NCBI GenBank assembly: GCA_022571255.1
Contig: JACZYD010000003.1
Location: forward strand, 1-62,833
DNA: 62,833 bases
Direction of reading: 5' to 3'
From: Bacteroidota bacterium
GTDB lineage: Bacteria; Bacteroidota; Rhodothermia; Rhodothermales; UBA10348
The notes below the pieces were generated by a model that was given only the letters and a program-made list of their open reading frames with translations, had not been told where the DNA came from and did no database searches. Position 1 is the first letter of the stretch, and every line of letters starts with the position of its first letter. This document shows, in pieces, positions 3,705-52,613 of this stretch. The translations under genes and the position numbers were made by a program.

Positions 3705-3741
3705 ATGAAAAGCGACGACGATGAAAAGCGACGACGATGAA
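3705..3741. repeat. tandem repeat, 16 nt x ~2.3 (atgaaaagcgacgacg)
   Basis: Two perfect copies at 3705-3720 and 3721-3736, then a partial third. Lies in the intergenic gap between the rpiB-like stop and the lpdA start. Confidence 0.8.
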
Positions 3742-3779
3742 TACGGGAGCGCAGGTCCAGAAAAACTTACAGGCAGGAT

Positions 3780-4418
3780 TCAGCGCCCGAATTTGATCTC
3801 AATATCTCGAATTTTGGCAATGCGTAACTCGTGCCGTCCACCTTCATAGGCCGTTTCCAGAAATGTTGTCACAATCCTTTTGCAGACTTCAACGCCCAGT
3901 GAACGACTCCCAAGGGTGAGAATATTGGCATTATTGTGCGCACGAGCGCTCCAGGCTGTGAATTCATTGTAGGCGCACGCGGCGTGGATCCCAGGCACTT
4001 TATTGCATACTATCGAGGAGGCAATGCCCGTGCCGTCGATCATGATGCCGGTACCGGCCCGACCATCCGAAACCATTCTCGCCACAGCGTACGCAAAGTC
4101 GGGGTAATCGCAGGCTTTTGCCGAATCTGTTCCTACATCCACAACCGTCCAGTCTTTGCCCGATAGAAACGTAACAATGACTTTTTTAACATCGAATCCG
4201 CCGTGGTCGCTTCCAATACAAACGATGCGCGACGATGAGGGCAGCGGTGCGGTGTGTCCCAGTTCTACTGGACCGGTCTCTAAAGAAATCCCATGTTGCC
4301 TGGCGGCGTCACGGGCGAGCGGCGTAATAATGGAGCCTTCAGGGAACGATAGAGTTTTCCGGCCCGCCCGGACGGCGTCCATGATACGCGTTTCATTTAT
4401 GAGCACCCGACCAGACAT
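3780..4418 (-). CDS. rpiB: RpiB/LacA/LacB-family sugar-phosphate isomerase with ~65-aa N-terminal extension
   Basis: C-terminal ~145 aa carry IGSDHGGF, CDYPDFA, GIMIDGTGIASSIVCNKVPGIHAA and ARAHNNANILTLGSR. The N-terminal 65 aa (ITPLARDAARQHGISL) is an extra domain. Confidence 0.8.
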   Translation of the reverse strand: MSGRVLINETRIMDAVRAGRKTLSFPEGSIITPLARDAARQHGISLETGPVELGHTAPLPSSSRIVCIGSDHGGFDVKKVIVTFLSGKDWTVVDVGTDSAKACDYPDFAYAVARMVSDGRAGTGIMIDGTGIASSIVCNKVPGIHAACAYNEFTAWSARAHNNANILTLGSRSLGVEVCKRIVTTFLETAYEGGRHELRIAKIRDIEIKFGR

Positions 4419-4540
4419 TTTTTGAAGCTACAACCGGTATTCAGGCGATGCAAGAAGATTTGAACCGATATAATCCGATACGGGCAACGAGGCCGGCAAG
4501 TCAGGGCCTGCTGTCTGCGGCAGGACGCCATAGACATGCC

Positions 4541-5725
4541 CTAATTTGACAACCAATCCTGAGGGTCAATGGGCTCACCGTTGTGAAAAATGCCAAAAAA
4601 GGCGGTTCTTCCACGAGGTTCTGCATCAGTTCCAGAACGCCCGAGAATCTGACCGGAGCGTATCGTGTCTCCTTTTCCTACATAGAGCAATGAAAAATTA
4701 CCGTAGACCGACAGGTAATCACCATGCTCTACGAAAACCACTCTGCCGAGTCCGGGCATTACATCGATCAACCTGACATGCCCTTCGAATACCGCCGCTA
4801 TTTCTGACGAAGCTCCAGTTTCAATGATAATTCCAACGTTATCGGTCGTGGTACCCAGATCAGGATTCACAACCCGTCCGAACGGTTCTTTTATTCCGCC
4901 AAAAACCGGCCACGGCAGAGCGCCTTTACTCGCCTCAAACCGAGTGGTACGCAGAATACTTTCGGCCAGTTTTGCCCGGCTCGGATCGGCACTGACATTA
5001 ACAAGAGCCACTAGATTGTTCATCTCCGAGAGCTTGTCATCGAGTGAGGTCGAGAGTAACTGTTTTTGTGCCTCCAACCTTCTGATCTCGGATTGGTGCG
5101 ATTTCTTCAAAATCGTTAATCCCTCAGTGGCACGTTCGGCGTCCTGGAGTATCACCTCATTTTGAAACAGAGTCCTCTGCAGGGTCTCTCGCTTTACCTT
5201 CAACGCTTCTGAAGCATCCTGAATATCAAGCAACTGTCCTTTTCGCTGAGTACTGAAACGGTGCAAGTATTGGATCCGGATCAACATCTGATTGATCGAC
5301 CCGGCTGAAAGGATCAGCGCTATGTCGTGAAGTCTACCAAATTTATAGGCATATATAGCTCGTGACCGGTACTCAGACTTAAGCCTGGAAAGCCGGTCGG
5401 CCATTTCATCGATGGAGCGGAATAGTGAATCCCGTTCAAGCGTCAGGTTATCAAGTCGATTTCTGAATGTGGAAACACGTGCCCGGCTTGATTTTATCTG
5501 ATTACTCAGATCGTTGACGCTCCGTTTCGTCTTTACCTCTTCTCGTTCTGTTGCCAGAAGGCGAGCCTGATCAGCCTGAATCTCTGATTTAAGATCGTAG
5601 AGGTCAGCATTCGCGTTTGATGAAGTTTGTGCGTTGACGTCGCGGATTCCAATGAAAACAATCGCGGACAGTAGAAGCGCGCCGACAATCCGTGACAGCA
5701 GCGCAGGGTGACTGTATGGAGTCAT
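4541..5725 (-). CDS. M23/LytM-family peptidase with N-terminal coiled coil (EnvC-like murein hydrolase activator)
   Basis: Signal/TM segment, long heptad-rich region, then a LytM domain: GHVRLIDVMPGLGRVVFVEHGDYLSVYGNFS...GQILGRSG. Confidence 0.85.
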   Translation of the reverse strand: MTPYSHPALLSRIVGALLLSAIVFIGIRDVNAQTSSNANADLYDLKSEIQADQARLLATEREEVKTKRSVNDLSNQIKSSRARVSTFRNRLDNLTLERDSLFRSIDEMADRLSRLKSEYRSRAIYAYKFGRLHDIALILSAGSINQMLIRIQYLHRFSTQRKGQLLDIQDASEALKVKRETLQRTLFQNEVILQDAERATEGLTILKKSHQSEIRRLEAQKQLLSTSLDDKLSEMNNLVALVNVSADPSRAKLAESILRTTRFEASKGALPWPVFGGIKEPFGRVVNPDLGTTTDNVGIIIETGASSEIAAVFEGHVRLIDVMPGLGRVVFVEHGDYLSVYGNFSLLYVGKGDTIRSGQILGRSGTDAEPRGRTAFFGIFHNGEPIDPQDWLSN

Positions 5726-10706: not shown

Positions 10707-10796
10707 CCTGTTATACTTTGTCGAGAGAAGAAAGTGAGAAAATAAGAGTTCCCGGTCAATGAATGGTGTCCTGTCTGCGCCCGACGGAGTATCATT

Positions 10797-11006
10797 GCTG
10801 ATGCGGAGGCTGATGCTGATGCGGAGGCGGAGACTGACGTTGACGTTAATGCCGATGCTGATGCGGAGGCTGATGCGGAGGCGGAGACTGACGTTGACGT
10901 TGATGCTGATGCTGATGCGGAGGCTGATGCGGATGCGGAGGCGGAGGTTGAGGCTGAGGCGGAGACTGACGTTGACGTTGACGTTGATGCCGATGCTGAG
11001 GCTGAT
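10797..11006. repeat. 35 tandem hexamers (GNNGAN: gctgat/gcggag/actgac/gttgac) with 54-96 nt higher-order units
   Basis: Read directly. Lies between the divergent OMP gene (start 10706) and the M28 peptidase gene (start 11038). All frames checked are open across it (two plus-strand frames and the minus-strand OMP-ORF frame). One plus-strand frame reads (A/V/T)(D/E) dipeptides but has no start codon. Confidence 0.9.
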
Positions 11007-13225: not shown

Positions 13226-13648
13226 ATGGAAACGGCCCTGAAAAAATGCGGTCATTGTGCGCGTGAAAAACTGCTATCAGAGTTCGGCTGGCAGAATCAC
13301 GCCACTGACATTCTGCGCAAGTCGTGTAAGGAATGTGATTCAAGAGCGGAAAAATTGTTTGGAATAGAAGATGAATACGAAGCCCGGCGATCAGCACGAC
13401 TCTTCCTGAAGTACGGTATTTCTCCGCGAGAGGAGGCTCAGCTGCTCGCAGATCAAAACGGTGCATGCGCCGCTTGCGGAGAGATTCCGGAAGGAAAACG
13501 GCTTCTGGTCGATTATTGTAAAGAATACAACGTGGTTCGCGGCCTCTTGTGTCCCGCTTGCAGCAAAATGGTCAGCAGGTTAGGCTCGGACCTGTCCATG
13601 ATGCGTAAGACGATGGCCTATCTGCAGGCCAGTGTGAGCGGGTTTTAA
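13226..13648 (+). CDS. endonuclease VII-family (His-Me finger) zinc-binding protein, catalytic residues substituted
   Basis: N-terminal CGHC...CKEC zinc ribbon plus YGISPREEAQLLADQNGACAACG...RLLVDYCKEYNVVRGLLCPACSKMVSRLG, which matches the Endo VII pattern Q.G.CAIC...VDHDH.TG.VRGLLC..CN..LG. The alternative GTG start is at 13136. Confidence 0.7.
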   Translation: METALKKCGHCAREKLLSEFGWQNHATDILRKSCKECDSRAEKLFGIEDEYEARRSARLFLKYGISPREEAQLLADQNGACAACGEIPEGKRLLVDYCKEYNVVRGLLCPACSKMVSRLGSDLSMMRKTMAYLQASVSGF

Positions 13649-13710
13649 ACTCGGCGCGCAAAAACGTAGACTCGGCGCGCAAAAATCAAGCTTCGGCGCG
13701 CAAAAACGTG
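13648..13710. repeat. tandem repeat, 21 nt x 3 (ctcggcgcgcaaaaa core) spanning the cfa stop codon
   Basis: On the minus strand it reads FLRAEA* / FLRAEST / FLRAEFK. The first unit is the end of cfa. Confidence 0.85.
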
Positions 13711-27004: not shown

Positions 27005-27055
27005 TGCCCGTGGCGGGGCGCACCGAAAGAAAGCGACGCCCCAAATCGGGCCGTG

Positions 27056-31542: not shown

Positions 31543-31562
31543 AAAAATAATATATTTATCAG

Positions 31563-35360: not shown

Positions 35361-35382
35361 AAAGTATGGCTTGAACCACATC

Positions 35383-35410
35383 GACACAGCAGCATGGACA
35401 CAGCAGCATG
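35383..35410. repeat. tandem repeat, 14 nt x 2 (gacacagcagcatg)
   Basis: Perfect duplication in the 62-nt gap between the two ABC genes. Confidence 0.8.
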
Positions 35411-35422
35411 GATTGAAGATTA

Positions 35423-37231: not shown

Positions 37232-37273
37232 GGAAGAAAATATTTCGCTGGAGTGGGAACGAGTATATTATCT

Positions 37274-37291
37274 TATCGTATAGCGACGATA
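37274..37291. promoter_or_regulatory. 6-6-6 inverted repeat TATCGT-atagcg-ACGATA upstream of arsR (candidate operator)
   Basis: Read directly. Lies in an AT-rich stretch ~115 nt upstream of the arsR ATG. ArsR/SmtB repressors bind imperfect inverted repeats near their own promoters. Confidence 0.3.
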
Positions 37292-37407
37292 TATATGTTA
37301 TTATCCTGCAACCAGTGCCTGTATACGCTAATGGAAGCGCCCTGTAGCTTCCTGAAAACATGCGAATCAAGGCGTTGAATCCCGTCCACGAACGGACGCA
37401 AAATATC

Positions 37408-37737
37408 ATGGCATTCCCGCGAAGCGACAAATTCGATCATGAACTGCTCTGCCTGGCTGACACAGCAAGAGCTCTGTCACATCCGGGTCGGCTCGCCATA
37501 CTTGCCTTGCTTGCGAGGCGGAACGAGTGCATCTGCGGAGACATCGTAGAGGAACTTCCATTGGCTCAGGCTACGGTCTCACAACATTTGAAAGTGTTGA
37601 AAGAGGCAGGACTCATCATTGGAACGATCGAAGGGCCGCGGATCTGTTATTGTGTTGATTGGAAGGCGTTCGAGAAGGCTGCCTCCGGTCTCGCGAACTG
37701 GTTTTCGGGTATTCAATCCCGCACATCTTGTTCTTGA
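37408..37737 (+). CDS. arsR: ArsR/SmtB-family metalloregulator
   Basis: [48 protein letters not shown] (winged HTH with ECICG metal-site cysteines). Confidence 0.88.
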
Positions 37738-37841
37738 ACAAAGCAGTGCTGATAAACGAAGCGGTGCTGTTGAACAGAGCGGTGGCGCTACATGAAGCGG
37801 CGCCGTTGAACAGAGCGGTGGCGATAAACAAAGCGGCGCTG
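37734..37841. repeat. tandem repeat, 18 nt x 6 (tRaacaRagcggYgc core) starting on the arsR stop codon
   Basis: Units at 37734, 37752, 37770, 37788, 37806 and 37824. They read [36 protein letters not shown] in the arsM frame. Confidence 0.9.
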
Positions 37842-37877
37842 TCAGATACAGGTGCACGGCGAAATATATTGCTCCAA

Positions 37878-38783
37878 ATGGACACACGTGGATCAAAAAA
37901 TAGGACAATGCTGATGAAAAGATCACAGTCTGAGCGCTGCTCCAAAGGATCGGCTACCATTTTCGACACAGATTCAAGCAGAACAAAGGAGATCGTAAAA
38001 GACACGTATCGACGTGCCGCTGAAAATGGCGGTCTCGGCGGCAGCGGTAATGGCAGCAGCGGTAGTGGCAGCAGCTTTTCGGATGATGAATCCAATTACA
38101 CCATGATGGACGAGTCCTACGAAATCAGAGTCGGATACGTACCGGATGCAGATCTTGGTCTGGGGTGTGGAATACCCACCGACCTGGCTGGGATTGAAGA
38201 AGGTCATCGTGTGCTCGATCTTGGATCCGGAGCCGGAATTGATGCCTTCATTGCGCGCGATCTGGCAGGAGAAAAAGGATTTGTAACAGGCGTCGATTTT
38301 ACGCCGAAAATGATTGCTCTGGCCCGGCGCAACGCAAAAAAGCTGGGATTCAATAATGTGACTTTTATAGACGGAGATATCGAAGCGCTTCCGATCCCGG
38401 ACGATTCTGTCGATGTCGTTGTGAGCAACTGCGTATTGAATCTCGTTCCAGACAAAGAAGCTGCTTTCCGTGAAATGGCTCGCGTTATAGCGCCCGGCGG
38501 TCATTTTTGTATCTCGGACATCGTATGCCGTGGGCATATTCCGGACGCAGTCAGACAAGCAGCAGAAAGGTATGCAGGATGCGTGGCGGGTGCGCTGGAC
38601 GAGAAGGACTATCTCAGGAAGCTGAAGGATGCAGGATTCGAAAATGTAACCGTTTTGAAGGAGCGCGAAATACAGATCCCGCTGTCCATATTGGAGGGAG
38701 TGCTCGGCTGCGCGACACGTTCAACCGCAGACGCGGGTGGGGCCATCGTAAGTATCACGGTGCGGGGTGATAAACCAGTCTGA
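37878..38783 (+). CDS. arsM: arsenite S-adenosylmethionine methyltransferase-like protein (start uncertain: 37878, 37908 or further upstream)
   Basis: SAM motif VLDLGSGAGIDAF, plus the three ArsM-type cysteine contexts LGLGCGIPT, SNCVLNLV and YAGCVAGA. Sits directly downstream of arsR. Confidence 0.8.
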   Translation: MDTRGSKNRTMLMKRSQSERCSKGSATIFDTDSSRTKEIVKDTYRRAAENGGLGGSGNGSSGSGSSFSDDESNYTMMDESYEIRVGYVPDADLGLGCGIPTDLAGIEEGHRVLDLGSGAGIDAFIARDLAGEKGFVTGVDFTPKMIALARRNAKKLGFNNVTFIDGDIEALPIPDDSVDVVVSNCVLNLVPDKEAAFREMARVIAPGGHFCISDIVCRGHIPDAVRQAAERYAGCVAGALDEKDYLRKLKDAGFENVTVLKEREIQIPLSILEGVLGCATRSTADAGGAIVSITVRGDKPV

Positions 38784-38809
38784 ACAGGTTCGAGAAGAGA
38801 CGACAGGCC

Positions 38810-39664
38810 TCAGGTCAACCACATGTCGAACGTTCGCCGATACGATCTGGTCAGGGGGTGACGGTTTCCGAGCAGCGTGAAAACTGCTACCCCGATCTTT
38901 CTGGACGCATCGTCTTCATAATATCGATTCGTTTTGATGACCTCCAGGAGGGCCATGACGACTTCCTCCAACCGATTATCGGACAAAGCGGTAAGGGCGC
39001 GAATAAAATCAGCACGGCCGGATTCATCAGCGAAGGGTTTTTCGCTCTGAATCCGGTTGCGATAGCCATCCAGTGTATGGATAGCCTCAGAAATCACTGC
39101 GAAGCGTGGTTCTGAGCTTGCCGCCGTACGAGCGAGAGACGCGGCACGTTGCGGATTCAAAAACGCCAGACACAGGGCAAGCAAGCCTGCAGCCAAAGGA
39201 TTTGTCGGTTCGTCGGCGACAATCTGTTCAAGGATTACCATTGCGGCGTTCTGATCTCCGCTTTCCAGGAATGCCTCAGCAGAAGACAGTAATTTTGATC
39301 CTTCTCCGGGAATCGCTGTATCCAGCCACTGACGCACTGCGGCTTCGGGCAGGGCACCCGTAAATTCATCCGTTACCTGAGCATCCACGAAGAGTTTTAC
39401 TGCGGGAATTCCACGGATGCCGTATTGTATCGACAGGTCCTGAAACTGCTCCGTGTTTACTTTTACCAGCGTCCAGCGCTCTGATTGCTCTAAAGCCAGT
39501 TTCTCCAGAACAGGTCCCAGCACACGACAAGGGCCGCACCACGGCGCCCAGAAATCAACCACTACGGGTCTTGATTTGCTCGCAATGAGAACATCTTCTT
39601 CAAAGTTTGTTACGTCGAAGCCCACAACGTCCGTACTTTTTGCGTTCGCATTAACCAGGTTCAT
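38810..39664 (-). CDS. thioredoxin-domain protein with C-terminal TPR-like domain (YbbN/CnoX-type)
   Basis: VVDFWAPWCGPCRVLGP active site followed by a ~170-aa helical repeat domain. Confidence 0.85.
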   Translation of the reverse strand: MNLVNANAKSTDVVGFDVTNFEEDVLIASKSRPVVVDFWAPWCGPCRVLGPVLEKLALEQSERWTLVKVNTEQFQDLSIQYGIRGIPAVKLFVDAQVTDEFTGALPEAAVRQWLDTAIPGEGSKLLSSAEAFLESGDQNAAMVILEQIVADEPTNPLAAGLLALCLAFLNPQRAASLARTAASSEPRFAVISEAIHTLDGYRNRIQSEKPFADESGRADFIRALTALSDNRLEEVVMALLEVIKTNRYYEDDASRKIGVAVFTLLGNRHPLTRSYRRTFDMWLT

Positions 39665-39704
39665 CGGATGGCTTGATAACTACAAAGGACAACTGAATTT
39701 GCCG

Positions 39705-40883
39705 ATGTTTTCGCATACCATACACCCCGCAGGAGGATTCGCATTCATCGCTTTTTTATGGATTATGAGCGGCCTGTTTGTTATCGGATGCGCGCCTCAG
39801 TCAGGAGCAGATTCGTCTGAAATAAATCCGATGATGCATGCACCATATGATCGCTCCACTGATGTATTTCGGTTCGAAGGCGAGGATCATATCCGGAACA
39901 TCAAACAACTCACTTTCGGGGGTAATAACGCAGAAGCGTACTGGAGTTTTGACAATGAATCCCTCATTTTCCAGAGTGATTGGAAGCGGATCAACCAGCA
40001 GGGCTGCGACCAGATTTTTGTAATGAATGGTTCTGACTCGACTCCATCCGGGGACGTCTCTGACTATACACTCGTATCGACTGGCCTGGGCCGCACCACC
40101 TGCCCATTTTTCATGCCGGGTGATGAAGAGATTATTTTTGCCTCGACACACGAGACTGCAACGGAGTGTCCCACTCCTGTCATGTTTTCGGATGACCGGT
40201 ATGTATGGCCTGTGTACGACGGATACGATATTTACATCAGCAATCGGGACGGATCTGATATTCGACCTCTGATCGCCGCTCCGGGATACGACGCCGAGGC
40301 GACGGTCTCGCCCGACGGTCGATTCATTGTTTTTACGTCAACGCGCAGCGGGGATCTCGAATTGTGGCGGTATGAAATCGAGACTGGAGATTTACTGCAA
40401 CTCACCGATGGCCTGGGATACGACGGCGGTGCCTTTTTCTCTCAAGACTCCCAGAGGCTTGTCTGGCGGGCCAGCCGGCCTGAAGGGGAAGAAGCAGAGG
40501 TGTATAAAGATCTTCTCACGCAGGGACTGATTGAACCATCGGAGCTGAATATATTTGTTGCAGATATCGACGGAAAAAACGTGCAGCAGGTTACCGACCT
40601 TCCCGGGGCAAACTGGGCTCCGTATTTTCACCCTGACAATGATCGGATATTATTCACCTCGAATCACCACTCGTTGGATCGTGGCGGTCGCGAATTTGAT
40701 CTGTTCCTCATCGGATCTGACGGTACCGGGCTGATACGAATTACCCACTCGGGTACATTCGATGGTTTTCCCATGTTTTCGTACGATGGATCAAAACTTG
40801 TGTTTGCATCCAATCGAAATGCAGATCGGAGTCCGTCGAGGGAGACCAACATATTTGTCGCAGATTGGGTCGAGAATCCTTAG
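39705..40883 (+). CDS. TolB-like PD40 beta-propeller lipoprotein
   Basis: ATG at 39705 gives a signal with lipobox (LFVIGC). Repeated blades follow: SPDGRFIVFTS, FSQDSQRLVW, FHPDNDRILFTS, FSYDGSKLVFAS. The upstream part of the ORF-track entry overlaps the thioredoxin gene. Confidence 0.8.
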   Translation: MFSHTIHPAGGFAFIAFLWIMSGLFVIGCAPQSGADSSEINPMMHAPYDRSTDVFRFEGEDHIRNIKQLTFGGNNAEAYWSFDNESLIFQSDWKRINQQGCDQIFVMNGSDSTPSGDVSDYTLVSTGLGRTTCPFFMPGDEEIIFASTHETATECPTPVMFSDDRYVWPVYDGYDIYISNRDGSDIRPLIAAPGYDAEATVSPDGRFIVFTSTRSGDLELWRYEIETGDLLQLTDGLGYDGGAFFSQDSQRLVWRASRPEGEEAEVYKDLLTQGLIEPSELNIFVADIDGKNVQQVTDLPGANWAPYFHPDNDRILFTSNHHSLDRGGREFDLFLIGSDGTGLIRITHSGTFDGFPMFSYDGSKLVFASNRNADRSPSRETNIFVADWVENP

Positions 40884-40996
40884 GTTCTGCCAACGATGAT
40901 GGAAGATGTCCTGCCGATGACTGTTTTTTGTCCGACAAGGGAGCTTCCATCGGCCTTAACAGGCCCTGGTACCCTCGCATCGGACTCGGACACGCC

Positions 40997-41806
40997 CTAA
41001 TACGTATTGGTTTCCACGACTTCGACCAGTGCCGCGTGGAAGGACTCCAGTATCTCGTCGAATTCGCCAAGGCGACGCTCTACACCAGCTATGTCGGCCT
41101 TAATGGAGCTTTGTTCGAATTCGGCGCACAGCAGAGACAGGTGACGGGCTCCGAATGTGGCACTGGTTGATTTCAGTGTGTGTGTGGCCCGACGCAGCGC
41201 ATCGGCGTCTTTGTCCGACACCGCCCGGTAAATTTCCCCGCGAAGGCGTTCCGCATCCAACAGGTAATCACTCAGCAGTTCTCGAATGTAGGCTGTGTCG
41301 CCTTCGTCCATCATCAGGGCCAGAGAACGCAGAACGCTTCGATCGACGACCTGATCAATTTCAACGGTCGAAGACGACGAATCGGATCCTGAGCAGTGGG
41401 ACATTAAAATTTTTTCTTTGAGCGTTTCCATCATGAACGCCTTTGTCATGAAGTAGTCCATGCCGGCATCCAGACAGCGCGAGCGATCTGAGCCCATGGC
41501 ATTGGCAGTCAAAGCGATAATATATGCTCGGTGTCCGTTGGATTCAGCGTTTCTTATAATGCCTGCAGCCTCGTAACCATCCATTCTCGGCATCATAAGA
41601 TCCATGAAAATCACGTCGTAGGGAGCGTTGCCTGTCAGAGCAACAGCTTCCTCGCCGTTTGAGGCTACGTCGGGCTGGTAACCCAGTTTTTGAAGCATTC
41701 GGACAACCACCTGCTGGTTTACCAGGTTGTCTTCTACAAGGAGAATTCTTAGTGTTGACATAAAACTCGGGTGTGGGCAAGCACTGTTTCTGCCCGATTC
41801 AGTCAT
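40997..41806 (-). CDS. response-regulator receiver domain fused to HPt phosphotransfer domain
   Basis: ILLVEDNLVNQQVV and DVIFMDLMMPRMDGYE receiver motifs, with a C-terminal HPt helix ATHTLKSTSATFGA. The alternative ATG is at 41761. Confidence 0.85.
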   Translation of the reverse strand: MTESGRNSACPHPSFMSTLRILLVEDNLVNQQVVVRMLQKLGYQPDVASNGEEAVALTGNAPYDVIFMDLMMPRMDGYEAAGIIRNAESNGHRAYIIALTANAMGSDRSRCLDAGMDYFMTKAFMMETLKEKILMSHCSGSDSSSSTVEIDQVVDRSVLRSLALMMDEGDTAYIRELLSDYLLDAERLRGEIYRAVSDKDADALRRATHTLKSTSATFGARHLSLLCAEFEQSSIKADIAGVERRLGEFDEILESFHAALVEVVETNTY

Positions 41807-41892
41807 TAATATATGAGACTGTATCGGCCGTTACGGAGCGAAATTGAAGTAAAAACCTTACTGTCTGTCAGATTTGCGTCCGCCAGAGACTG

Positions 41893-41946
41893 TCAGTCTC
41901 TACGGAGATATCAGTCTCTACGGAGATATCAGGCTCTACGGAGATA
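41893..41946. repeat. tandem repeat, 18 nt x 3 (tcagKctctacggagata) abutting the stop codon of the CcmF-like gene
   Basis: Units at 41893, 41911 and 41929. On the minus strand each reads YLRR(A/D)* in frame with the upstream CDS. Confidence 0.9.
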
Positions 41947-44433
41947 TCAGGGCGAGGACGTCGTGCGAAGATTTGCCGTTCGCTGGTCAGTGGCACGGCG
42001 ATAAATTGAGATACAAAACCCGATCGACAGAATGATGAAGCCGATCCAGACAAAACTGATGAGTGGTTTTTCGTACGCTTGGACAACGACCCAGTCCTGG
42101 GGTGTGATGTCGGCACCGGTAACAAAAATTTCGATTGATCCACTATCGACGTTCATGCCAGTGAAGGAGAAACTGAGATCCCAATCTCCAATTTCAGCCG
42201 GCTCGGCGCGAACGGTGCGGTTTTTGAGTATGCGATAGACAGGAGTGACTTCGCGAGACTCACCCGAATCGGTGTCGATGATTTCGAGAATCGCGCCTAC
42301 AACGACTTCGCTAGCATCGACTTCGCTAGCATCGACTCGGTGGCCGGGATCCGCTGTGGGGTCTATCGCCAGATCGTATTCCCTGAAAGTAATGGAATAC
42401 CGGCCATCTGAAAGAAGGCGAGATTCGCCCTGCTGAAGACTGAGCTCGCCCGGTTTGCGGTTTGAACCCTCATCGAAAATCGCTGCCGGCGTAACTGCCA
42501 CGAACAGGTCTTTGCTGATGAATCCAATCACGTCCGGATTCTGGATCCACTGACCTTTATTGCTTTTGTAGGCGACTGGTTTTGCGTCGAATGTCGATCC
42601 GTCCGGCGCGACGAACGAGAGAGCGTATGCAGGACGTCCTTCCGCTCCGATCGCATGGCCTGAATAGGTGACGGTGTATCCGCCGACTGTCCGTGGAATC
42701 CCATTTTCAAGCACAAAATTGTCGCGGGTTTGCCCGGTTCTTGAATCGGTGGACCGGGCCAATGGTTTACTGAAACCGCTTGACGCAACAATTCCGAGAA
42801 TCATGATGGCAAAACCTACGTGTGAAAGTGCACCACCGATCATTCGCAAATTACCCCGCGCGATGCGCCACATGACCAGAGAATTCCCGTAGAGTGCAAA
42901 AAAACCTACGAATGTCAACATCAGGAGCAGCAGGCCAAACCCATGTTCATCCCAGAAAGCACCAATTCCGAGCATGTCGGCCGCTTGCAGCAGGGGCGTG
43001 GCCGCAGCGTCTGCCATGGAAAGTGTTTGTGCCCGCTCTGTGAATGGTGTCGCGAACAGAATAAATATCGTGCTCGCGACCGCCAGGAAAATCGGTTTCA
43101 ACAAGACCTTATTGATGTTCTCGACCGTCATTTTATTCCACCAGAAAACTTGACCAAGCCCCGCGAGAAACAGGGCGACCACCATCAGAGGAAGGGTCCA
43201 TTTGTTATAGAACATCATGGGTACTGTCGAGGGCTGGTCTCTGAAAATCAGACCGAGAATGGGTGCGCTCGTTCCGACCAGTATGACGGCCGCCACTGCC
43301 GCCAGGATCATCGCTCCCGCGAATGTCATGAATTCGCGCGACAATAAGTTGGGTTCGTGCTCGGGAACAGGAAGTTCTTTGTACCTGACCAGAAAAAGGC
43401 CAAACCCGAGAACCGCCATCGTCAAAATCCAGACCAGTAACTGGTTGTACATTCCAAGATCAACGAATGCATGTACGGACGTTTCTCCGAGAATGCCGCT
43501 GCGCGTCAGAAAAGTAGAATAAATGACCAGCATATAAGCCAGAATCGCCAGGAAAAGGGATGCTTTCTGGCTGTGGCCGCTGCGCTTCTGTATCAGCATC
43601 GTGTGCAGACCGGCAATGCCGACGATCCATGGCACAAGAGAGGAGTTCTCAACGGGATCCCAGGCCCAGTATCCACCGAACGATAAAGTCTTATACGCCC
43701 AGTATCCGCCCATCATGATGCCGACTCCCAGGGCGAGAAGCCCGAAAATCATCCACGGAAGTGCCGGGCGGACCCACTGTGTGTATCGTTTCTTCCAGAG
43801 AGCAGTTACCGCGAAGGCAAACGGCACGATCATCGCCGCAAATCCCGAAAAGAGCACGGGAGGATGGATCACCATCCAGTAATTCTGCAGCAGATCATTC
43901 AGTCCCTGGCCATCCGTCGGGATTACCCCAGCCTGGATCATCGGAGCCGAGGGGAATTTTTCGACCAGAGTCTGAAACGGAGATATGCCGATAGTAAACA
44001 GTCCAACATCCAACCCCAGAATCATGGAAAGCAGGAAAACCTGACAGATTGCCATCACAGCCAGGACCGGCGCTTCGTAGGAACCCGCAAATCGGATCAC
44101 GAGCAGCCCGACCAGGCTGTTCATCACGATCCACAGTAGAAACGAGCCTTCCTGTCCGGCCCAGGAAGCGGAAATGAGATAATGAAACGGCAGATCCAGC
44201 GAAGAATGGCTGTACACGTAGGCGTACTGAAACTGATTCGTTGCATTGAGATAGATCAGGAGTCCGAACGCCGTTACACTCGACAAAAACATGGTAATCC
44301 ATGCCATTCTTCCCCATCGTTTGATCCTGGTCTGGACCAGACTGATTTCGGAATCACGGAAATAAAAGAGGCCGCTCGCAACAGTAGCCAGCAGCGCGAT
44401 GAGGATAACTCCTTTTCCGAGAACACCAATCAT
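41947..44433 (-). CDS. cytochrome c biogenesis haem lyase, CcmF/CcsA-family (WWD motif)
   Basis: GGYWAWDPVENSSLVPW tryptophan-rich motif, HPPVLFSGFAAMIVPFAFAV, ~15 TM helices and a large C-terminal periplasmic domain. ATG at 44433; the ORF-track start at 44472 is TTG. Confidence 0.85.
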   Translation of the reverse strand: MIGVLGKGVILIALLATVASGLFYFRDSEISLVQTRIKRWGRMAWITMFLSSVTAFGLLIYLNATNQFQYAYVYSHSSLDLPFHYLISASWAGQEGSFLLWIVMNSLVGLLVIRFAGSYEAPVLAVMAICQVFLLSMILGLDVGLFTIGISPFQTLVEKFPSAPMIQAGVIPTDGQGLNDLLQNYWMVIHPPVLFSGFAAMIVPFAFAVTALWKKRYTQWVRPALPWMIFGLLALGVGIMMGGYWAYKTLSFGGYWAWDPVENSSLVPWIVGIAGLHTMLIQKRSGHSQKASLFLAILAYMLVIYSTFLTRSGILGETSVHAFVDLGMYNQLLVWILTMAVLGFGLFLVRYKELPVPEHEPNLLSREFMTFAGAMILAAVAAVILVGTSAPILGLIFRDQPSTVPMMFYNKWTLPLMVVALFLAGLGQVFWWNKMTVENINKVLLKPIFLAVASTIFILFATPFTERAQTLSMADAAATPLLQAADMLGIGAFWDEHGFGLLLLMLTFVGFFALYGNSLVMWRIARGNLRMIGGALSHVGFAIMILGIVASSGFSKPLARSTDSRTGQTRDNFVLENGIPRTVGGYTVTYSGHAIGAEGRPAYALSFVAPDGSTFDAKPVAYKSNKGQWIQNPDVIGFISKDLFVAVTPAAIFDEGSNRKPGELSLQQGESRLLSDGRYSITFREYDLAIDPTADPGHRVDASEVDASEVVVGAILEIIDTDSGESREVTPVYRILKNRTVRAEPAEIGDWDLSFSFTGMNVDSGSIEIFVTGADITPQDWVVVQAYEKPLISFVWIGFIILSIGFCISIYRRATDQRTANLRTTSSP

Positions 44434-44738
44434 GATCAAAATCCTTGAAACACAAAAAAGCACGGCCAACAAAGGCGGCTATGAAGAACCTCTATAAACC
44501 ATAGTCAGGGTACCACTCATGTCCTTCCGATTTCCCCGGTTGACCCGCAAAGCGAGCCGGATTCGTTGCCGAATTGGGGCCTGTCGTCCAAACCTGAAGA
44601 ACGGTTCCCAGGGCCAAAAACGTTAGGTTCTTACTTTGGCGCCAGTTGCGGACTGTGCTTGAATGCATATATACGCCTCGATGTCCCACATTTCAAGCGA
44701 AAAAGGCGACAAGATCTGCAGATTTTTGAACGAACACG

Positions 44739-44840
44739 TCCGGAGAGCTTGAACCGGCGCGCCCGGAGAGCTTAAACCAGCGAGCCCGGAGGCTTGAACC
44801 AGCGCACCCGGAGAGCTTAAACCAGCGCGTCGGAGAGCTT
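44739..44840. repeat. tandem repeat, 22-24 nt x ~4.5 (ccggagagcttRaaccRgcg) spanning the zapA stop codon
   Basis: The minus strand reads gctctccgacgcgctggtttaa (last 7 codons of zapA plus TAA) followed by 3.5 further copies ending in CAA/TAA. Confidence 0.9.
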
Positions 44841-45104
44841 GCGTTCCATCGCGTCCAGCTCGCCGTTGATTTTTTCACCCGGATCAAATTTTTCTGCGCG
44901 TTCCAGAAACAGCTTTTCAGTGATGGCGAGACCGGTGATTACGGCCGCAGTAAGATCCGATTGTTCGGGGTGGGCAGATTTGAAAGCGCGAAGGCGAGAG
45001 TCAAGATATTCAGCCATTTCGTGCGTTGCAGCGGCCTCATCTTCCTCAACGCGGAGCGTGTACTCTTTATCGAGAATGGTGATGCGAATCGGTTGAATCA
45101 TCAA
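44817..45104 (-). CDS. zapA: cell division protein ZapA
   Basis: 95 aa: RITILDKEYTLRVEEDE...AVITGLAITEKL plus a C-terminal coiled coil. Sits downstream of pheST as in many bacteria. Confidence 0.85.
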   Translation of the reverse strand: MMIQPIRITILDKEYTLRVEEDEAAATHEMAEYLDSRLRAFKSAHPEQSDLTAAVITGLAITEKLFLERAEKFDPGEKINGELDAMERKLSDALV

Positions 45105-45506
45105 TCACACCTCCTGCTTTTCGGCGACCTGACTTTCTTCGAATTGCTGCTCATTCATATGCGCGTCAATGGCCTTGATGTACCTCTCAATTCGTGATCG
45201 CAATTCCGTTGAGGATTCAGAAAAAACGACCGGGGTGCCTTCCACGCTCATCGATGGATGATTGGCAGCTTTTTCCAGATCACGGCGTATTTTTTTGTTT
45301 TCATTTCGAAGCCGCGCGAGTTCTCTGACCGTGAGATCGACCCGGTCGCGCAATCGTGCGAGTGAGTGCGTTCCTTTCATATTAATTGACGCATAAAAGA
45401 GAGTCCGGCCCGAAGGACTCGATGTGAACGTTTCTGTTTGGTCAAACATGGTCGCCTGCCGGGCGGAGGGGGGAGTACGTCGGTTCCGGTGAGAACTGTC
45501 AGTCAT
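45105..45506 (-). CDS. hypothetical coiled-coil protein (possible ZapB-like partner), start uncertain
   Basis: Stop abuts the zapA start. Heptad-rich LARLRDRVDLTVRELARLRNENKKIRRDLEK. Confidence 0.55.
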   Translation of the reverse strand: MTDSSHRNRRTPPSARQATMFDQTETFTSSPSGRTLFYASINMKGTHSLARLRDRVDLTVRELARLRNENKKIRRDLEKAANHPSMSVEGTPVVFSESSTELRSRIERYIKAIDAHMNEQQFEESQVAEKQEV

Positions 45507-45630
45507 ACTCGTTCAGGTAATTATAGAGGCGAACCTCCGAACGTCAACTCGGAGTACCTTTTCGGAAGGATTGTTTCGAATATACAGTTCCAACCGGTAC
45601 AATGTCAGCAGGCGCAAACGTAAACCGCAG

Positions 45631-48114
45631 TTACCGTCGAAGCTCGGCGCCCGATTCTGATTTGAGAACTTTCACGATCCCGTCAAAACAGAGGTCAACT
45701 TCTTTGTCAACCAGTGTGCGGTCTGCTGAGAATTTCAGCGAGAAAGCGACACTTTTCATGGTGCTGTCGATCTGATCGCCCTCATAAAGATCGAACACGG
45801 AAACTCCGCTGAGGAGTGGTTTCCCGCTTTCGCGGATCTGCTGAAGCAGTTTTCCGACAGGCGTATTCGCACCGACCGTGACGGCGAGGTCTCGTTCAAC
45901 CACGGGGAAACGACTGAAAGCCTCGTAGCGCTTTCGAAGAAACGGCTCCGCAAGCCGACTTATGGTTGACCAGTCCAGCTCAAGGAAAAAAAGAGGGGCA
46001 GGAATATCGTACTGTTTTCGGATCGAGGCTGATAACTCGCCGAGTACACCCACATATTCACCGACTGACGTGATGATCGAATAGGAAGACGCAACCGGGA
46101 ATTGCGACGTACCCGATTCGAATCGAACCTCGGCCAGATGTACGGCCCGAAGTAACGTCTCGGCAACTCCTTTGAGATCGAAATAATCCATCTTTCGAAC
46201 ATCCTGATGCAGACCCGACGCCGCGTCATCGCCCGAGACAACAAGCAGCAGGAGCTCTTTTTCCGTGTAGCCATCAATGATTGATTCGTTGGAATGGGCA
46301 CGGATTTGAACGTTGCCTATTTCAAAATAACGGAGCGACTTCCGTCCGTGGTTTGCGTTGTAACCCGCAATCGCGAGTGTCCCCGGAAGCAGGCTCGGCC
46401 TCAGAGCGGCCATTTCCTGAGAAATCGGGTTCAAGGTTTTCACGATGTTGCCGCCAAGGCGTCCACCCGGAAGTATATCAACCTGAAACGCCTCGGCCGT
46501 TTCGAGACGAAGCATACTGTTGGTATACAATTCCCGGAATCCGAGCGCGGCAAGGCGATCACGAATGTCTTCGCGCAACAATCTCTGCGCAGGTATCTCG
46601 ACAGCGTGGTCCGGCACTGATGAACGGACCGGTTCCGGAATTTTGTCAAACCCGTAGAGTCGTGCGACCTCCTCAATGATGTCTACTTCCCGCTCAATAT
46701 CTGGACGGAAAGTGGGAATCGTACAATCGAAGGATTCTTCATCGTCTGAGATCTGAATTTCGAACCCGATGGCTTCGAGCAGCGAGACCATCTTTGCGGC
46801 CGGTAAATCTACACCGATCAAGGCATTGGCACGGGCTCGGCGCAGTGTGACGCGCGTTGGCTTGACGGTTACCGAACGCGCAGAGACCATCCCCGGAACA
46901 AGCGTTCCTCCGGCCAACCGCACCATCAGTTCAGCCGCGCGTGCCGCCGCTCGCGCCTGAGCGCATGGATCAACACCTCGTTCAAAACGGTACGACGCAT
47001 CCGTTTGTATCTGAAGTTTTCTGGCGGTTCTTCTAATCTGGACGGGATCGAAATACGCACTTTCGATCAACACGCTGGTTGTCTCGCGAGTCACCTCTGA
47101 GTTCTCGCCCCCCATTATTCCGGCAATTGCGATATCGCGTTCGCCGTCGGCGATCATCATGGTTCCGGCGGGAAGCGTCCGCTTGTTGCCGTCGAGCGTG
47201 ACAAATTCAGTTTCGCCCGATGTTTTCCGAACAATGATTTTTGAATCGGCCAACGTATCGAAATCAAATCCGTGAAGGGGCTGTCCGAGTTCATACATCA
47301 CATAATTTGTGATGTCTACGATATTGTTTCTGGGACGCAGTCCAACAGCCAGAAGGCGCTGCTTCAGCCACCGGGGCGATTCGTCTACGCGAATGTCGCG
47401 TACCAGAATCCCAACGTATTCCTGGCAAACATCAGTCGCCTCAATGGTGACCGAGAATTCATCGGTCGCTGCTTTTCCATGGTCCGGAATATCAATCTCC
47501 GGCATCTTCAGCTGTTTTCCGGTCAATGCAGCTACATCGCGCGCAACGCCGACGTGGCAAACGGCATCAGGGCGATTGGGCGTGATGGCGATGTCGATCG
47601 CGTGATCGACGAGGGGTACACCTTCTTCTGATATCCAGTCAGAGAAGGCTTCGCCGACCGGGGCTTCATGATCCAGAACCAGAATGCCGTCCTGATCATC
47701 GCCCACGCCAAGCTCAACCTCCGAACAGATCATCCCGAATGAAACCTCGCCCCTGATTTTCGACTTTCGAACCGTGACAGCAATTTTTTCATTCGGGTCC
47801 TCGCGAGAAGGCATATGGAGGACACTGCCGATCGTGGCCACCGCGATTTTTTGTCCAGCCTCTACGTTGGGAGCTCCGCAGACAATCGTTACGGGTTCGG
47901 CCTCGCCGATTTTCACAGAGCATAATCGCAGACGATCGGCGTTCGGGTGTGGTTCGCACGTTAATACGTGACCAATAACCACACCGTCAAGCGAGGAGCC
48001 TATCTGCACAATTCCTTCCACTTCAAGACCACACATGGTGAGCAGTTCGGCGAGGTCATCGACCGAGAGATCGTGAGACACGTAGTCAGAAAGCCAGTGG
48101 TTACTGATGATCAT
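45631..48114 (-). CDS. pheT: phenylalanine--tRNA ligase beta subunit
   Basis: 827 aa. N-terminal tRNA-binding OB domain (VIGHVLTCEPHPNADRLRLCSVKIGE), B3/4 and B5 domains, and a C-terminal FDX-ACB-like domain. Confidence 0.95.
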   Translation of the reverse strand: MIISNHWLSDYVSHDLSVDDLAELLTMCGLEVEGIVQIGSSLDGVVIGHVLTCEPHPNADRLRLCSVKIGEAEPVTIVCGAPNVEAGQKIAVATIGSVLHMPSREDPNEKIAVTVRKSKIRGEVSFGMICSEVELGVGDDQDGILVLDHEAPVGEAFSDWISEEGVPLVDHAIDIAITPNRPDAVCHVGVARDVAALTGKQLKMPEIDIPDHGKAATDEFSVTIEATDVCQEYVGILVRDIRVDESPRWLKQRLLAVGLRPRNNIVDITNYVMYELGQPLHGFDFDTLADSKIIVRKTSGETEFVTLDGNKRTLPAGTMMIADGERDIAIAGIMGGENSEVTRETTSVLIESAYFDPVQIRRTARKLQIQTDASYRFERGVDPCAQARAAARAAELMVRLAGGTLVPGMVSARSVTVKPTRVTLRRARANALIGVDLPAAKMVSLLEAIGFEIQISDDEESFDCTIPTFRPDIEREVDIIEEVARLYGFDKIPEPVRSSVPDHAVEIPAQRLLREDIRDRLAALGFRELYTNSMLRLETAEAFQVDILPGGRLGGNIVKTLNPISQEMAALRPSLLPGTLAIAGYNANHGRKSLRYFEIGNVQIRAHSNESIIDGYTEKELLLLVVSGDDAASGLHQDVRKMDYFDLKGVAETLLRAVHLAEVRFESGTSQFPVASSYSIITSVGEYVGVLGELSASIRKQYDIPAPLFFLELDWSTISRLAEPFLRKRYEAFSRFPVVERDLAVTVGANTPVGKLLQQIRESGKPLLSGVSVFDLYEGDQIDSTMKSVAFSLKFSADRTLVDKEVDLCFDGIVKVLKSESGAELRR

Positions 48115-48165
48115 AAGCTGAATCGTTGTAAAGCTTAATCGCTTTGAAGCGGAATCGTTTTCGAT

Positions 48166-50538: not shown

Positions 50539-50609
50539 ACAGGTTTGTTTAAATGGAGGACGAAATATACAGTTTAATCAACAGTCAACGGAAACGGGAT
50601 CGTTTTTGT

Positions 50610-52565
50610 TCAGCTTAATCCGGCTTCGAGACGAGTATTTTTCATTTCACTTTTGATGTCGTCGATAAAATCATGTACCGAACGAACTCCCAGGTCTCCT
50701 CCTCCGTGTCTGCGAACTGAAACGGTCCCGTTTTCCTGTTCGCGCTTACCCACCACGAGCATGAAGGGAATCTTCTGCATTTCAGCGTGTCGGATTTTGT
50801 AACTGACTTTTTCGTTACGCATATCCGTGTCGACACGGATACCTGCGTCCATTAACGTTGTTTTGACTTGGGAAGCATAGTCTTCGAAATCCTGACCGAC
50901 TGGCAAAACTATCACCTGCACGGGGGCCAGCCAAGTGGGAAAGTTGCCTCCGCAGTGTTCGATCAGTACAGCGATGAATCGCTCAAGTGAGCCAAGCGGT
51001 GCGCGGTGAATCATCACCGGCCGGTGTTTCTGATTGTCTTCTCCAATGTATGTCAGATCGAATCTTTCGGGTAGTGTGTAGTCGAGCTGCACGGTTCCGA
51101 GCTGCCACTGGCGACCAAGCGCATCGCGAACCATGAAGTCCAGTTTTGGTCCGTAAAAAGCGGCTTCTCCAATTTCTTCGGTCGCCTCCAGATCCATCTC
51201 CCTTGTTGCTTCTCGAATGGCGTTCTCGGCAGCATCCCAGACCGCACTGTCGCCGACATATTTTTCCATGTCTTGAGGATCACGAAGAGATATCTGCGCC
51301 GTGAAATCCGAAAAACCGAACATTCTGTATACTTTGAGGGTCAGGTCGATGACATCCTTGAATTCATCCTTGACCTGTTCATTCGTACAGAAAATGTGTG
51401 CGTCATCGATGGTAAATCCACGCACGCGCATCAGACCGCTCAGTTCGCCGGATTGTTCGTATCGGTATACATTGCCAAACTCGGCCAGACGAATGGGAAG
51501 CTCTCGATACGAGTGCGGTTTGTCCGCATAAATCTGAGTGTGATGAGGGCAGTTCATCGGTTTGAGCAGATAGCCTTCTTCCTCGTCGTCCATCATGGGA
51601 GGGAACTGGCTGTCTTTATAATAAGGGTAGTGACCGCTTATTTTGTAGAGTTCAAGTCGCCCGATATGCGGAGTCACCACGGGCAGATACCCGCGTCGGA
51701 GCTGTTCTTCTTTCAGGAAATTTATCAACGTATCGCGGAGAATGGCTCCTTTCGGCAGCCATAACGGCAGTCCCGAGCCCACAAGCGGACTGAATGTGAA
51801 CAACTCCAGATCTTTACCCAGTTTACGGTGGTCGCGCTCGCGGGCGAGTTCACGCATTTCAAGAAATTCATCGAGCTGTTTCTTTTTAGGGAAGCTGATC
51901 CCGTAGAGGCGCGTGAGCTGTTTCCGTTTCTGATCACCCCGCCAGTAAGCACCGGCGATGTTCAGCAGCTTGGTATACCTGATGTTCTTTGTGTTTGGTA
52001 TGTGCGGTCCCCGGCACAGATCGGTGAAATTGCCCTGGGTATAAAACGTTATCGAACCATCCTGGAGATCTTCCAGCAGTTCGAGCTTGTATTCGTCTCC
52101 TTTTTCCTTGAAATAGGCGATGGCATCGGCCTTGCTGACCGATCGACGTTCGTAAGGAGCTGCGCGCCGGGCGAGCTCTGCCATTTTGGTTTCGATGGAG
52201 AGGAGGTCCTCTGCTTTGAGAGACCGATCGCCGAGATCAACGTCGTAATAAAAACCATTCTCTATCGCGGGTCCTATACCGAATTTTGTGCCCGGGAAAA
52301 GCGATTCCAGCGCCTCGGCCATCAAGTGCGCAGAGGAGTGCCAGTAGGTCGCTCGGCCTTCTTCATTGCGATCCGTGTAGACGGCAAATGTTCCACTTTC
52401 TTCGATGGGCCTCAGGAGGTCTCGCACCTCGCCGTTTACGCCTACGGAAAGCGCCGCGCGAGCCAGGCCCTCCGAGATGCTTCTGGCCACATCCAGCCCG
52501 TTCACGCCGTTTTCAAATTCGTGCGCACTGCCGTCCGGGAAAGTAAGTGTGATCTGCTCCGCCAT
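50610..52565 (-). CDS. thrS: threonine--tRNA ligase
   Basis: ATG at 52565 gives MAEQITLTFPDGS (TGS domain). Also HSSAHLMAEA editing motif, MNCPHH, and FGNVYRYEQSGELSGLMRVRGFTIDDAHIF class II motifs. Confidence 0.96.
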   Translation of the reverse strand: MAEQITLTFPDGSAHEFENGVNGLDVARSISEGLARAALSVGVNGEVRDLLRPIEESGTFAVYTDRNEEGRATYWHSSAHLMAEALESLFPGTKFGIGPAIENGFYYDVDLGDRSLKAEDLLSIETKMAELARRAAPYERRSVSKADAIAYFKEKGDEYKLELLEDLQDGSITFYTQGNFTDLCRGPHIPNTKNIRYTKLLNIAGAYWRGDQKRKQLTRLYGISFPKKKQLDEFLEMRELARERDHRKLGKDLELFTFSPLVGSGLPLWLPKGAILRDTLINFLKEEQLRRGYLPVVTPHIGRLELYKISGHYPYYKDSQFPPMMDDEEEGYLLKPMNCPHHTQIYADKPHSYRELPIRLAEFGNVYRYEQSGELSGLMRVRGFTIDDAHIFCTNEQVKDEFKDVIDLTLKVYRMFGFSDFTAQISLRDPQDMEKYVGDSAVWDAAENAIREATREMDLEATEEIGEAAFYGPKLDFMVRDALGRQWQLGTVQLDYTLPERFDLTYIGEDNQKHRPVMIHRAPLGSLERFIAVLIEHCGGNFPTWLAPVQVIVLPVGQDFEDYASQVKTTLMDAGIRVDTDMRNEKVSYKIRHAEMQKIPFMLVVGKREQENGTVSVRRHGGGDLGVRSVHDFIDDIKSEMKNTRLEAGLS

Positions 52566-52568
52566 TGT

Positions 52569-52613
52569 CAGCTTTGTTCGATACAGCTTTGTGTGATACA
52601 GCCCTGTACGATA
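52569..52613. repeat. tandem repeat, 15 nt x 3 ending 3 nt upstream of the thrS ATG
   Basis: The minus strand reads tatcgtacagggctg / tatcacacaaagctg / tatcgaacaaagctg aca ATG. It is in frame with thrS (YRTGL/YHTKL/YRTKL). Confidence 0.9.

Follow-up and report, generated by a model that had tools for sequence, protein, structure and literature searches.

Short tandem repeat arrays beside gene ends in an uncultured marine-sediment Rhodothermales are probably ordinary variable-number tandem repeats

Introduction

Bacterial variable-number tandem repeats (VNTRs), or minisatellites, are the loci used for strain typing by multiple-locus VNTR analysis (MLVA), and near-perfect arrays are the most unstable among them. 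Contingency loci, as in Neisseria, Haemophilus and Campylobacter, have units of 1 to 7 nucleotides (nt) and act as gene switches, by way of the reading frame or the spacing of the -10 and -35 elements. Repetitive extragenic palindromic (REP) sequences and bacterial interspersed mosaic elements (BIMEs) are a dispersed family of imperfect palindromes. Mycobacterial interspersed repetitive units (MIRUs), as relayed from Supply et al. 1997 in PMC3184786, constitute one dispersed family with units of 40-100 bp at about 40-50 loci, for which transposition was suggested. In marine Beggiatoaceae, an intergenic TAACTGA heptamer occurs in 169 sets genome-wide and has been proposed to be regulatory (PMC4679880), and a survey of 5374 prokaryotic genomes found tandem repeats to be enriched upstream of starts and downstream of stops (PMC12418385). 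Here we describe short tandem arrays at and near gene ends in a 62,833-nt stretch of DNA (hereafter, the window) from contig JACZYD010000003.1 of assembly GCA_022571255.1, which belongs to an uncultured species of the Rhodothermales represented in marine-sediment metagenomes of at least eight studies.

A first-pass annotation of the window had reported nine such arrays, most of them touching a start or stop codon, and had concluded that random slippage would not be anchored in this manner and that no described system was known to produce the pattern. Our analysis favors a simpler account. The arrays are likely to be ordinary bacterial VNTRs of the minisatellite type that arose by slippage, and their adjacency to genes is likely to follow from short spacers and from the harmlessness of duplications that span a stop codon; slippage together with selection suffices, and a new kind of system need not be invoked. 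We found no paper that describes stop-spanning tandem duplications as a class, while general intergenic enrichment has already been published.

Results

Thirteen tandem arrays in the window

Tandem Repeats Finder (TRF) was run on the entire window, arrays were kept at a score of at least 50, and each was read unit by unit. This identified 13 arrays, comprising the nine reported earlier, every one of which was reproduced in place by TRF and by direct reading, and four additional ones:

3705 to 3741: 16-nt unit, 2.3 perfect copies, in the rpiB-lpdA spacer
10796 to 11006: about 35 NNNNGA hexamers, hypervariable, with higher-order periods of 54 and 78 nt, in a spacer between divergent genes
13648 to 13710: 21-nt unit, 3 copies, filling the entire 37-nt spacer between the convergent endonuclease-VII-like and cfa genes
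27409 to 27471: 21-nt unit, 3 copies, after the ABM monooxygenase gene
35379 to 35412: 14-nt unit, 2.4 copies, in the 65-nt spacer between two ABC-transporter genes
37734 to 37842: 18-nt unit, 6 copies with a 36-nt higher-order unit, in the arsR-arsM spacer, beginning on the arsR TGA
38037 to 38075, plus strand: 15-nt unit, 2.6 copies, in frame inside arsM, encoding a Gly/Ser linker (GGSGNGSSGSGSS)
41893 to 41950: 18-nt unit, 3.2 copies with 97% matches, abutting the TGA of the CcmF-like gene, hypervariable
42303 to 42337, minus strand: 15-nt unit, 2.3 perfect copies, an in-frame duplication inside the CcmF-like gene
44726 to 44841: 23-nt unit, 5 copies with 81% matches, running from the end of zapA into the 344-nt zapA-CcmF spacer
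48115 to 48159: 16-nt unit, 2.8 copies with 75% matches, filling the pheS-pheT spacer
52569 to 52613: 15-nt unit, 3 copies with 80% matches, 3 nt upstream of the thrS ATG at 52565
61398 to 61465: 21-nt unit, 3.3 degenerate copies (59% matches), G+C-rich, 13 nt past the second DUF5916 stop

These numbers are far beyond chance: at this score and with a period of at least 7 nt, 40 block-wise dinucleotide shuffles gave a mean of 0.35 arrays and a maximum of 2. Between scores of 30 and 50, the same shuffles predicted 8.9 arrays where 20 were observed, and this weaker class is attributable to chance for the most part. The copies lie head to tail and directly adjacent, without the unique spacers that separate the repeats of a CRISPR array. 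Spacer DNA makes up 8.5% of the window and holds 11 of the 13 arrays, which occupy 14% of it. The two arrays inside genes both have 15-nt units, and the units of the weak in-gene arrays are 12, 12, 9 and 12 nt long; all are multiples of three.

Placement relative to gene ends

The positions reported by the first-pass annotation mostly stood. The cfa, ABM and zapA arrays indeed open with the gene's own last codons plus its stop. At 13648-13710, the right-hand unit consists of the last eight cfa codons, which belong to a non-conserved C-terminal tail, and the copies contain no in-frame stop; the two convergent genes probably abutted before the duplication. On the minus strand, the first unit of the 27409 array is the last six ABM codons plus TGA, followed by two perfect copies, and the first unit of the 44726 array is the last seven zapA codons plus TAA. 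The 41893 array abuts the CcmF-like TGA and carries an in-frame TGA within each unit, the 37734 array begins on the arsR TGA, the thrS array ends 3 nt before its ATG, and the hexamers lie between divergent starts. Two placements had to be revised. The 3705 array touches no codon, lying 38 nt past the rpiB stop and 75 nt ahead of the ATG at 3629 from which lpdA most likely starts (a 472-residue call), and the 37734 array, which had been read as open in the arsM frame, is spacer and not arsM coding sequence, with the arsM start at 37878-37914 (called from 37914). Among the remaining spacer arrays, the 35379 array is 18 nt past the upstream stop and 13 nt ahead of the ATG at 35426, and the 48115 array extends from 6 nt past the pheS TAG up to the pheT ATG.

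Of the 355 nt that separate a minus-strand outer-membrane-like gene (10098 to about 10682) from a plus-strand M28 peptidase gene (from 11038), the hexamer array takes up 211, upstream of a signal-peptide start. GGAGG is frequent on its plus strand, and its end lies 31 nt ahead of the M28 peptidase ATG. Public assemblies mis-call the array as the N-terminus of the outer-membrane-like protein, whose annotated length of 278-308 amino acids depends on the allele.

We estimated the ancestral length of each of the 11 array-bearing spacers by subtracting the extra copies from the present spacer. Seven came to about 0, 22, 45, 49, 62, 63 and 100 nt and the other four to 150-666 nt, such that half were about 60 nt or shorter, compared with units of 14-23 nt. 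We then modeled neutral placement by positioning each unit uniformly wherever it would be harmless, either inside the spacer or spanning the stop or start codon. The observed distances to gene ends fit this model, with per-array P values of 0.05-1.0 and a combined Fisher p of 0.40-0.60. Neutral placement thus suffices for a pattern that had been thought incompatible with random slippage: the arrays appear anchored because the spacers scarcely exceed the units in length and because stop-spanning duplications do no harm.

Strain variation

To compare alleles, we drew on more than 20 marine-sediment metagenome runs from several studies that hold 0.76-0.93 of the window's sampled words, whose main contigs differ from the window at few sites per kb (about 99% identity or better), and on 34 further contigs and scaffolds of the same species retrieved by exact-protein look-ups with rplT, arsR, cfa and lpdA. 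Each array checked recurs in several independent assemblies from different studies, and the collapse to single copies that the first-pass annotation had named as a possible outcome did not occur. Twelve arrays, all except that at 61398, could be compared across strains. Five of them vary, always by whole units.

The 41893 array has two copies in scaffolds L163, L164 and L172, three in the window and in L166, L167, L169, L171, L173 and L177, four in L170 and L175, and six in L165. Perfect arrays break contigs assembled at k=31, and all such contigs are broken here; scaffolds L161 and L162 carry N gaps at this position and contig X25 crosses it without a gap. Perfect arrays account for the recurrent contig breaks and N gaps in assemblies of this species. 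Right after the last 18-mer on the minus strand, at 41876-41896, part of the unit recurs in inverted orientation (AGAGACTG-A-CAGTCTCT), forming a 7-bp hairpin at the edge of the array. Hairpins of such a kind are known to favor slippage.

Hexamer alleles differ from the window by +6 nt (X1, L181, L182), a net -48 nt (X3), -84 nt (L183) and -138 nt (L190), all multiples of 6. The 38037 array has one extra 15-nt unit in L176, giving an arsM product of 294 rather than 289 amino acids. The 15-nt duplication at 42303 belongs to a minority of strains, being present in X4, X10 and X17 and missing in X1, X2, X3, X6, X20 and every ENA scaffold that covers the locus (9 and 5 in two comparisons). The 52569 array lacks one 15-nt unit in a single run (X20) and matches the window in eight scaffolds. 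At the protein level, copy-number variation amounts to in-frame insertions of five residues in two proteins, and termini are unaffected elsewhere. The contingency-like extension and contraction of proteins considered in the first-pass annotation is therefore borne out as to copy-number change, seen in five arrays, and not as to the protein termini, none of which is altered.

Seven arrays showed no variation in the strains sampled. The 3705 array is unchanged in main contigs X1-X4 and in scaffold L183, and the 27409 array is the same in L171-L173 and is crossed by the X1-X4 contigs. The 13648 array is the same in eight scaffolds, with an N gap in one, and contigs X1 and X4 cross it. The arrays at 35379 and 37734 are the same in 8 and 10 contigs or scaffolds, respectively. 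Those at 44726 and 48115 are of equal length in 10 scaffolds each, the former with one single-nucleotide polymorphism in L165 and two in X10.

Variability is loosely tied to the identity of the units. Matches amount to 97% at 41893 and, for the 54-nt period, to 89% in the hexamers, the two most variable arrays, and the 42303 duplication is perfect; of the arrays with 67-81% matches, four are invariant (13648, 37734, 44726, 48115) and one is variable (52569). The latter, at 80%, is one exception to this link; the perfect but unvarying arrays at 3705 and 27409 are the others.

The 42303 locus shows where such an array can come from. The allele without the duplication reads CGACT-TCGCTAGCAT-CGACT, a 5-nt direct repeat exactly 15 nt apart, and this pair of repeats one unit apart is the substrate that slipped-strand mispairing needs. 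In the same population, a 208-nt deletion in a nirK-like gene has a 9-nt overlap at its joint, consistent with loss between direct repeats. Only at 42303 does an ancestral allele, with its bounding microhomology, survive; that slippage gave rise to every array and that the fixed arrays are neutral we infer. The 18-mer and hexamer loci and the 15-nt indel loci are ready-made strain markers for this species.

Search for a shared unit or function

Units were unrelated between arrays, and no credible dispersed copy of any was present in the 62.8-kb window. The sole hint of a shared unit comes from the zapA array (44726-44841) and the array at 61398-61465, whose units have a common core, CCGGGC-CGCT-GGTT-YAAGC, in the same orientation to their upstream genes. 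This resemblance had an uncorrected p of 0.002 among 78 comparisons (about 0.15 when corrected, with about 0.16 such pairs expected), and is probably due to chance. Shared CGGAGA / TCTCCG and GCGCGC motifs that had been seen by eye failed correction for multiple comparisons.

Folding of the transcribed strand gave z scores from -2.3 to +2.0 across the arrays. The most stable relative to shuffles was the arsR-arsM array (37734; z -2.3); the 3705 array was less stable than its shuffles (z +2.0), the thrS-leader array no more stable (z +1.0), and the zapA array nothing special (z -0.2 and +0.6). A scan of 27000-46999 for terminator-like sites (a G+C-rich hairpin followed by a T run) found none on the five arrays there. 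Rfam returned no hits at the gathering score and one spurious hit at E<=0.5, and no tRNAs were found. A 6S-like RNA downstream of zapA, considered as a candidate, was rejected, with no Rfam match and no unusual fold. The suggestion in the first-pass annotation that the arrays present binding sites for proteins or RNA finds no support here. At least one array is transcribed: a metatranscriptome contig (X29, 37477-38305) runs from arsR through the 37734 array into arsM, placing the array within the operon mRNA.

Comparison with other genomes

The background comprised 126 loci other than the window, each 8 kb or longer and 2.32 Mb together, mostly from Bacteroidota. In this set, 84 of 138 arrays (61%) lay in spacers or at gene edges, at 0.34 per kb of spacer versus 0.026 per kb of coding sequence. 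Twenty of these 84 (24%) overlapped or abutted a stop codon and 27 were within 6 nt of one. Contact with a stop is not significantly more frequent in the window, at 4 of 8 arrays by automatic calls and 5 of 11 by curation (Fisher p 0.20 and 0.15, respectively). The same appearance of last codons plus stop, repeated, was found in a Pedobacter genome and in several contigs from metagenomes and metagenome-assembled genomes (MAGs), and stop-spanning arrays elsewhere had no bias toward units that are multiples of three (about 3 of 18). In spacer arrays per kb, the window ranks about 12th of 127 loci. Some unrelated contigs are denser still, including L073 with 6 arrays in 12 kb (four of which span stops), L078 with 8 in 22 kb, and L152. 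No array was present in a further 8.2 kb of this genome immediately beyond the window, a stretch too small to stand for the whole genome.

Rhodothermales MAGs, with about 60% protein identity, are the nearest genomes. In L081, the closest relative found (PheT 78% identical), the pheS-pheT spacer is 17 nt long and has no array, and in other relatives it is 12-70 nt long, likewise without one. Across about 56 kb of thrS-pheT-region loci from relatives with PheT identities of 56-78% (synteny unchecked), no array scored 50 or more and the weaker hits were never intergenic. Because arrays are missing from these loci, those of the window appear to be young and lineage-specific rather than conserved; their age is bounded only loosely, because the relatives share 60-78% protein identity and none was found at 80-95% average nucleotide identity.

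Neighboring genes

Genes flanking or near the arrays were mapped by Pfam scans and translations. They comprise metG, lpdA, rpiB, the outer-membrane-like gene, the M28 peptidase gene, the endonuclease-VII-like gene, cfa, the ABM monooxygenase gene, two ABC exporters, arsR, arsM, a response-regulator/Hpt gene, the CcmF-like gene, zapA and the thrS-infC-rpmI-rplT-pheS-pheT cluster. The array-flanking genes are housekeeping genes, and no mobility genes are linked to them.

Several features of these and nearby genes bear on annotation. The infC gene (49933 to about 50490, minus strand) has no in-frame ATG, GTG or TTG and apparently starts at an Ile codon, the usual atypical start of initiation factor 3; public gene callers instead annotate a spurious 214-residue open reading frame (ORF) on the opposite strand. 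In one sample (L169 4043-7041 and L177 8015-10662), pheT is called at 773 amino acids, with no Pfam hit recorded, versus 827, and the hypothetical gene downstream of it at 91 versus 133, reflecting a 3' difference or a gap. The response-regulator/Hpt gene is called at 226 amino acids in L170 and L175 versus 254.

The nirK-like gene (53011-54242), which would encode a copper nitrite reductase-like protein with a fused cytochrome c domain, carries the 208-nt frameshifting deletion mentioned above, with its joint near 53255-53263. The deletion is shared by the window and scaffolds L161-L164 and splits the gene into ORFs of 103 and 316 amino acids; the gene is intact (479 amino acids) in L165 and L168. 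This makes it a segregating pseudogene, which probably arose through loss between short direct repeats. Finally, positions 1-435 of the window match no other assembly of the species. All assemblies agree from 436 onward, and the others, unlike the window, continue past that point into the intact N-terminus of a 707-residue metG. Either the left end of the window is a chimera, or metG is rearranged there in a strain-specific manner.

Discussion

The observations above can be assembled into a simple scheme. Each array would have its own origin in slipped-strand mispairing of short direct repeats as the DNA is replicated or repaired, and new duplications of 14-23 nt would arise anywhere in the genome. 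Purifying selection would then purge nearly all of those inside genes, sparing in-frame ones in tolerant linkers or tails, while duplications inside a spacer or across a stop or start would persist with the gene product unaltered. Where spacers are very short, a surviving array would almost inevitably abut or overlap a gene end, and a duplication spanning a stop would automatically read as the last codons plus stop, repeated. As long as copies stay nearly identical, whole units would keep being gained and lost; divergence by point mutation would freeze the array. Of the explanations offered in the first-pass annotation, the duplication of gene termini with only stop-truncated copies tolerated was essentially right. 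Stop-spanning duplications of this sort show spacer growth.

Some results sit less easily with this scheme. Unit length is a multiple of three in seven of the 11 spacer arrays, a mild excess over one-third (p 0.039) and over the background of 23 of 84 (p 0.013) that neutrality alone does not predict; it could reflect the codon periodicity of the gene ends that seed the arrays, or chance. Contacts with stops (five arrays) outnumber those with starts (two). The polymorphic thrS-leader array sits 3 nt short of its ATG within a spacer of 445 nt (P about 0.08). The density of arrays is raised, with 13 where 3.7 were expected, about 3.5 times the background mean (Poisson p 1e-4). On the technical side, gene boundaries in the background came from naive ORF calls, the copy numbers of perfect arrays derive from short-read assemblies, which are prone to miscounts, and N gaps interrupt two scaffolds at 41893. 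That the arrays have no function is a probable reading.

An unlikely alternative, though the one that survives best, is that some arrays are expression modulators of the contingency type, in which slippage would adjust the spacing of promoters, the length of leaders or the stability of mRNA, under selection that maintains it. The candidates would be the hexamers, the leaders of thrS and pheT, and the CcmF-like 18-mer, which has the response-regulator gene downstream of it. Polymorphism is found among these very arrays (five alleles for the hexamers, four for the 18-mer and two for the thrS leader), the hexamers take up most of the spacer between two divergent starts, the thrS array adjoins its ATG in an unstructured leader, and the arsR-arsM array, at least, is transcribed. 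However, polymorphism tends to track high repeat identity, as neutral slippage predicts, the sole junction that can be read in close relatives is without an array, no motif is shared, and known contingency tracts switch frames or promoter phasing in a manner that 15-18-nt units do not. We therefore think a regulatory role of the hexamer, 18-mer and thrS-leader arrays improbable. We hold equally improbable the broader proposal of a lineage with an unusually high rate of 14-23-nt duplication, in which a subset (the hexamers, the 18-mer and the leaders of thrS and pheT) has been co-opted to tune neighboring genes according to copy number. If this were true, repeats would build about one-seventh of the spacer DNA, and the excess of multiples of three would reflect seeding in codon-periodic gene ends.

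That the arrays are selected features of gene termini, serving as back-up stops or as a device to extend and contract C- or N-termini, is very unlikely. Such a role would fit the in-frame stops in the CcmF-like, ABM and arsR array units, the lengths of four of the five stop-touching units, which are multiples of three, and the location of the cfa array in a non-conserved tail. However, duplicating a stop-containing unit of such a length yields in-frame stops automatically, the cfa copies contain none, the 23-nt zapA unit rotates the frame, stop-spanning arrays elsewhere lack the length bias, and the copy changes observed fall downstream of the first stop and leave the protein unaltered. Back-up stops, also raised in the first-pass annotation, are thus unsupported.

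[quoted passage not shown] MIRUs are intergenic, can be tandem and have ends that overlap adjacent genes (PMC3184786), and the zapA and 61398 units are alike and similarly oriented, but about 0.16 pairs with such a likeness are expected by chance among the 78 comparisons and no other pair of units is alike. Moreover, the first units are the resident gene's own codons, and we saw no terminal inverted repeats, target-site duplications or palindromic folds. With locus-specific units and no dispersed copies, such a family is largely refuted within the window. It is scarcely conceivable that we are looking at artefacts from the assembly or sequencing of a single MAG, as the k=31 contig breaks, the N gaps in two scaffolds and the seemingly mis-joined first 435 nt might suggest, because every array checked recurs base for base in several independent assemblies; as regards its presence, no array is artefactual.

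Returning to slippage-born VNTRs as the preferred reading, comparison with described systems helps to place the arrays. Like REP/BIME sequences, which are extragenic, often lie just past stops and are sometimes clustered, they sit outside genes at gene ends, but their units are non-palindromic, undispersed and without unusual folds. With contingency loci they share reversible copy changes by slippage, and some contingency tracts lie between divergent genes, as the hexamers do here. The arrays of the window, in contrast, are outside coding frames, past stops or in leaders, or, at 15 nt, in frame; they cannot switch a reading frame, and no other switching is evident. The TAACTGA sets of Beggiatoaceae are likewise intergenic short tandem repeats with stop-containing units in a marine sediment bacterium, but one heptamer is shared there (PMC4679880), whereas each array here has a different unit.

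MIRUs, so far as the cited account describes them, are similarly intergenic, often within operons, tandem and copy-variable. Their ends overlap flanking stops and starts; of the arrays in the window, five reach or overlap a stop and two reach, or nearly reach, a start, for which geometry accounts. The units here, however, are 6-23 nt long, different at each locus and locally derived, rather than variants of a single consensus.

The closest match is with VNTRs, which have head-to-tail units of about 6-25 nt, mostly intergenic or else in frame within genes, with alleles that differ by whole units, an origin by slippage and a unit of their own at each locus. We found arrays beyond chance, whole-unit alleles in five of 12, locus-specific units and, at 42303, slippage between direct repeats. 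There is no essential difference, apart from a density here of 14% of spacer DNA, about 3.5 times the comparison mean; such loci have been uncatalogued in this uncultured marine-sediment Rhodothermales. In compact genomes, repeats that look anchored to starts and stops are an expected residue of slippage and purifying selection, which calls for caution before a special system is proposed.

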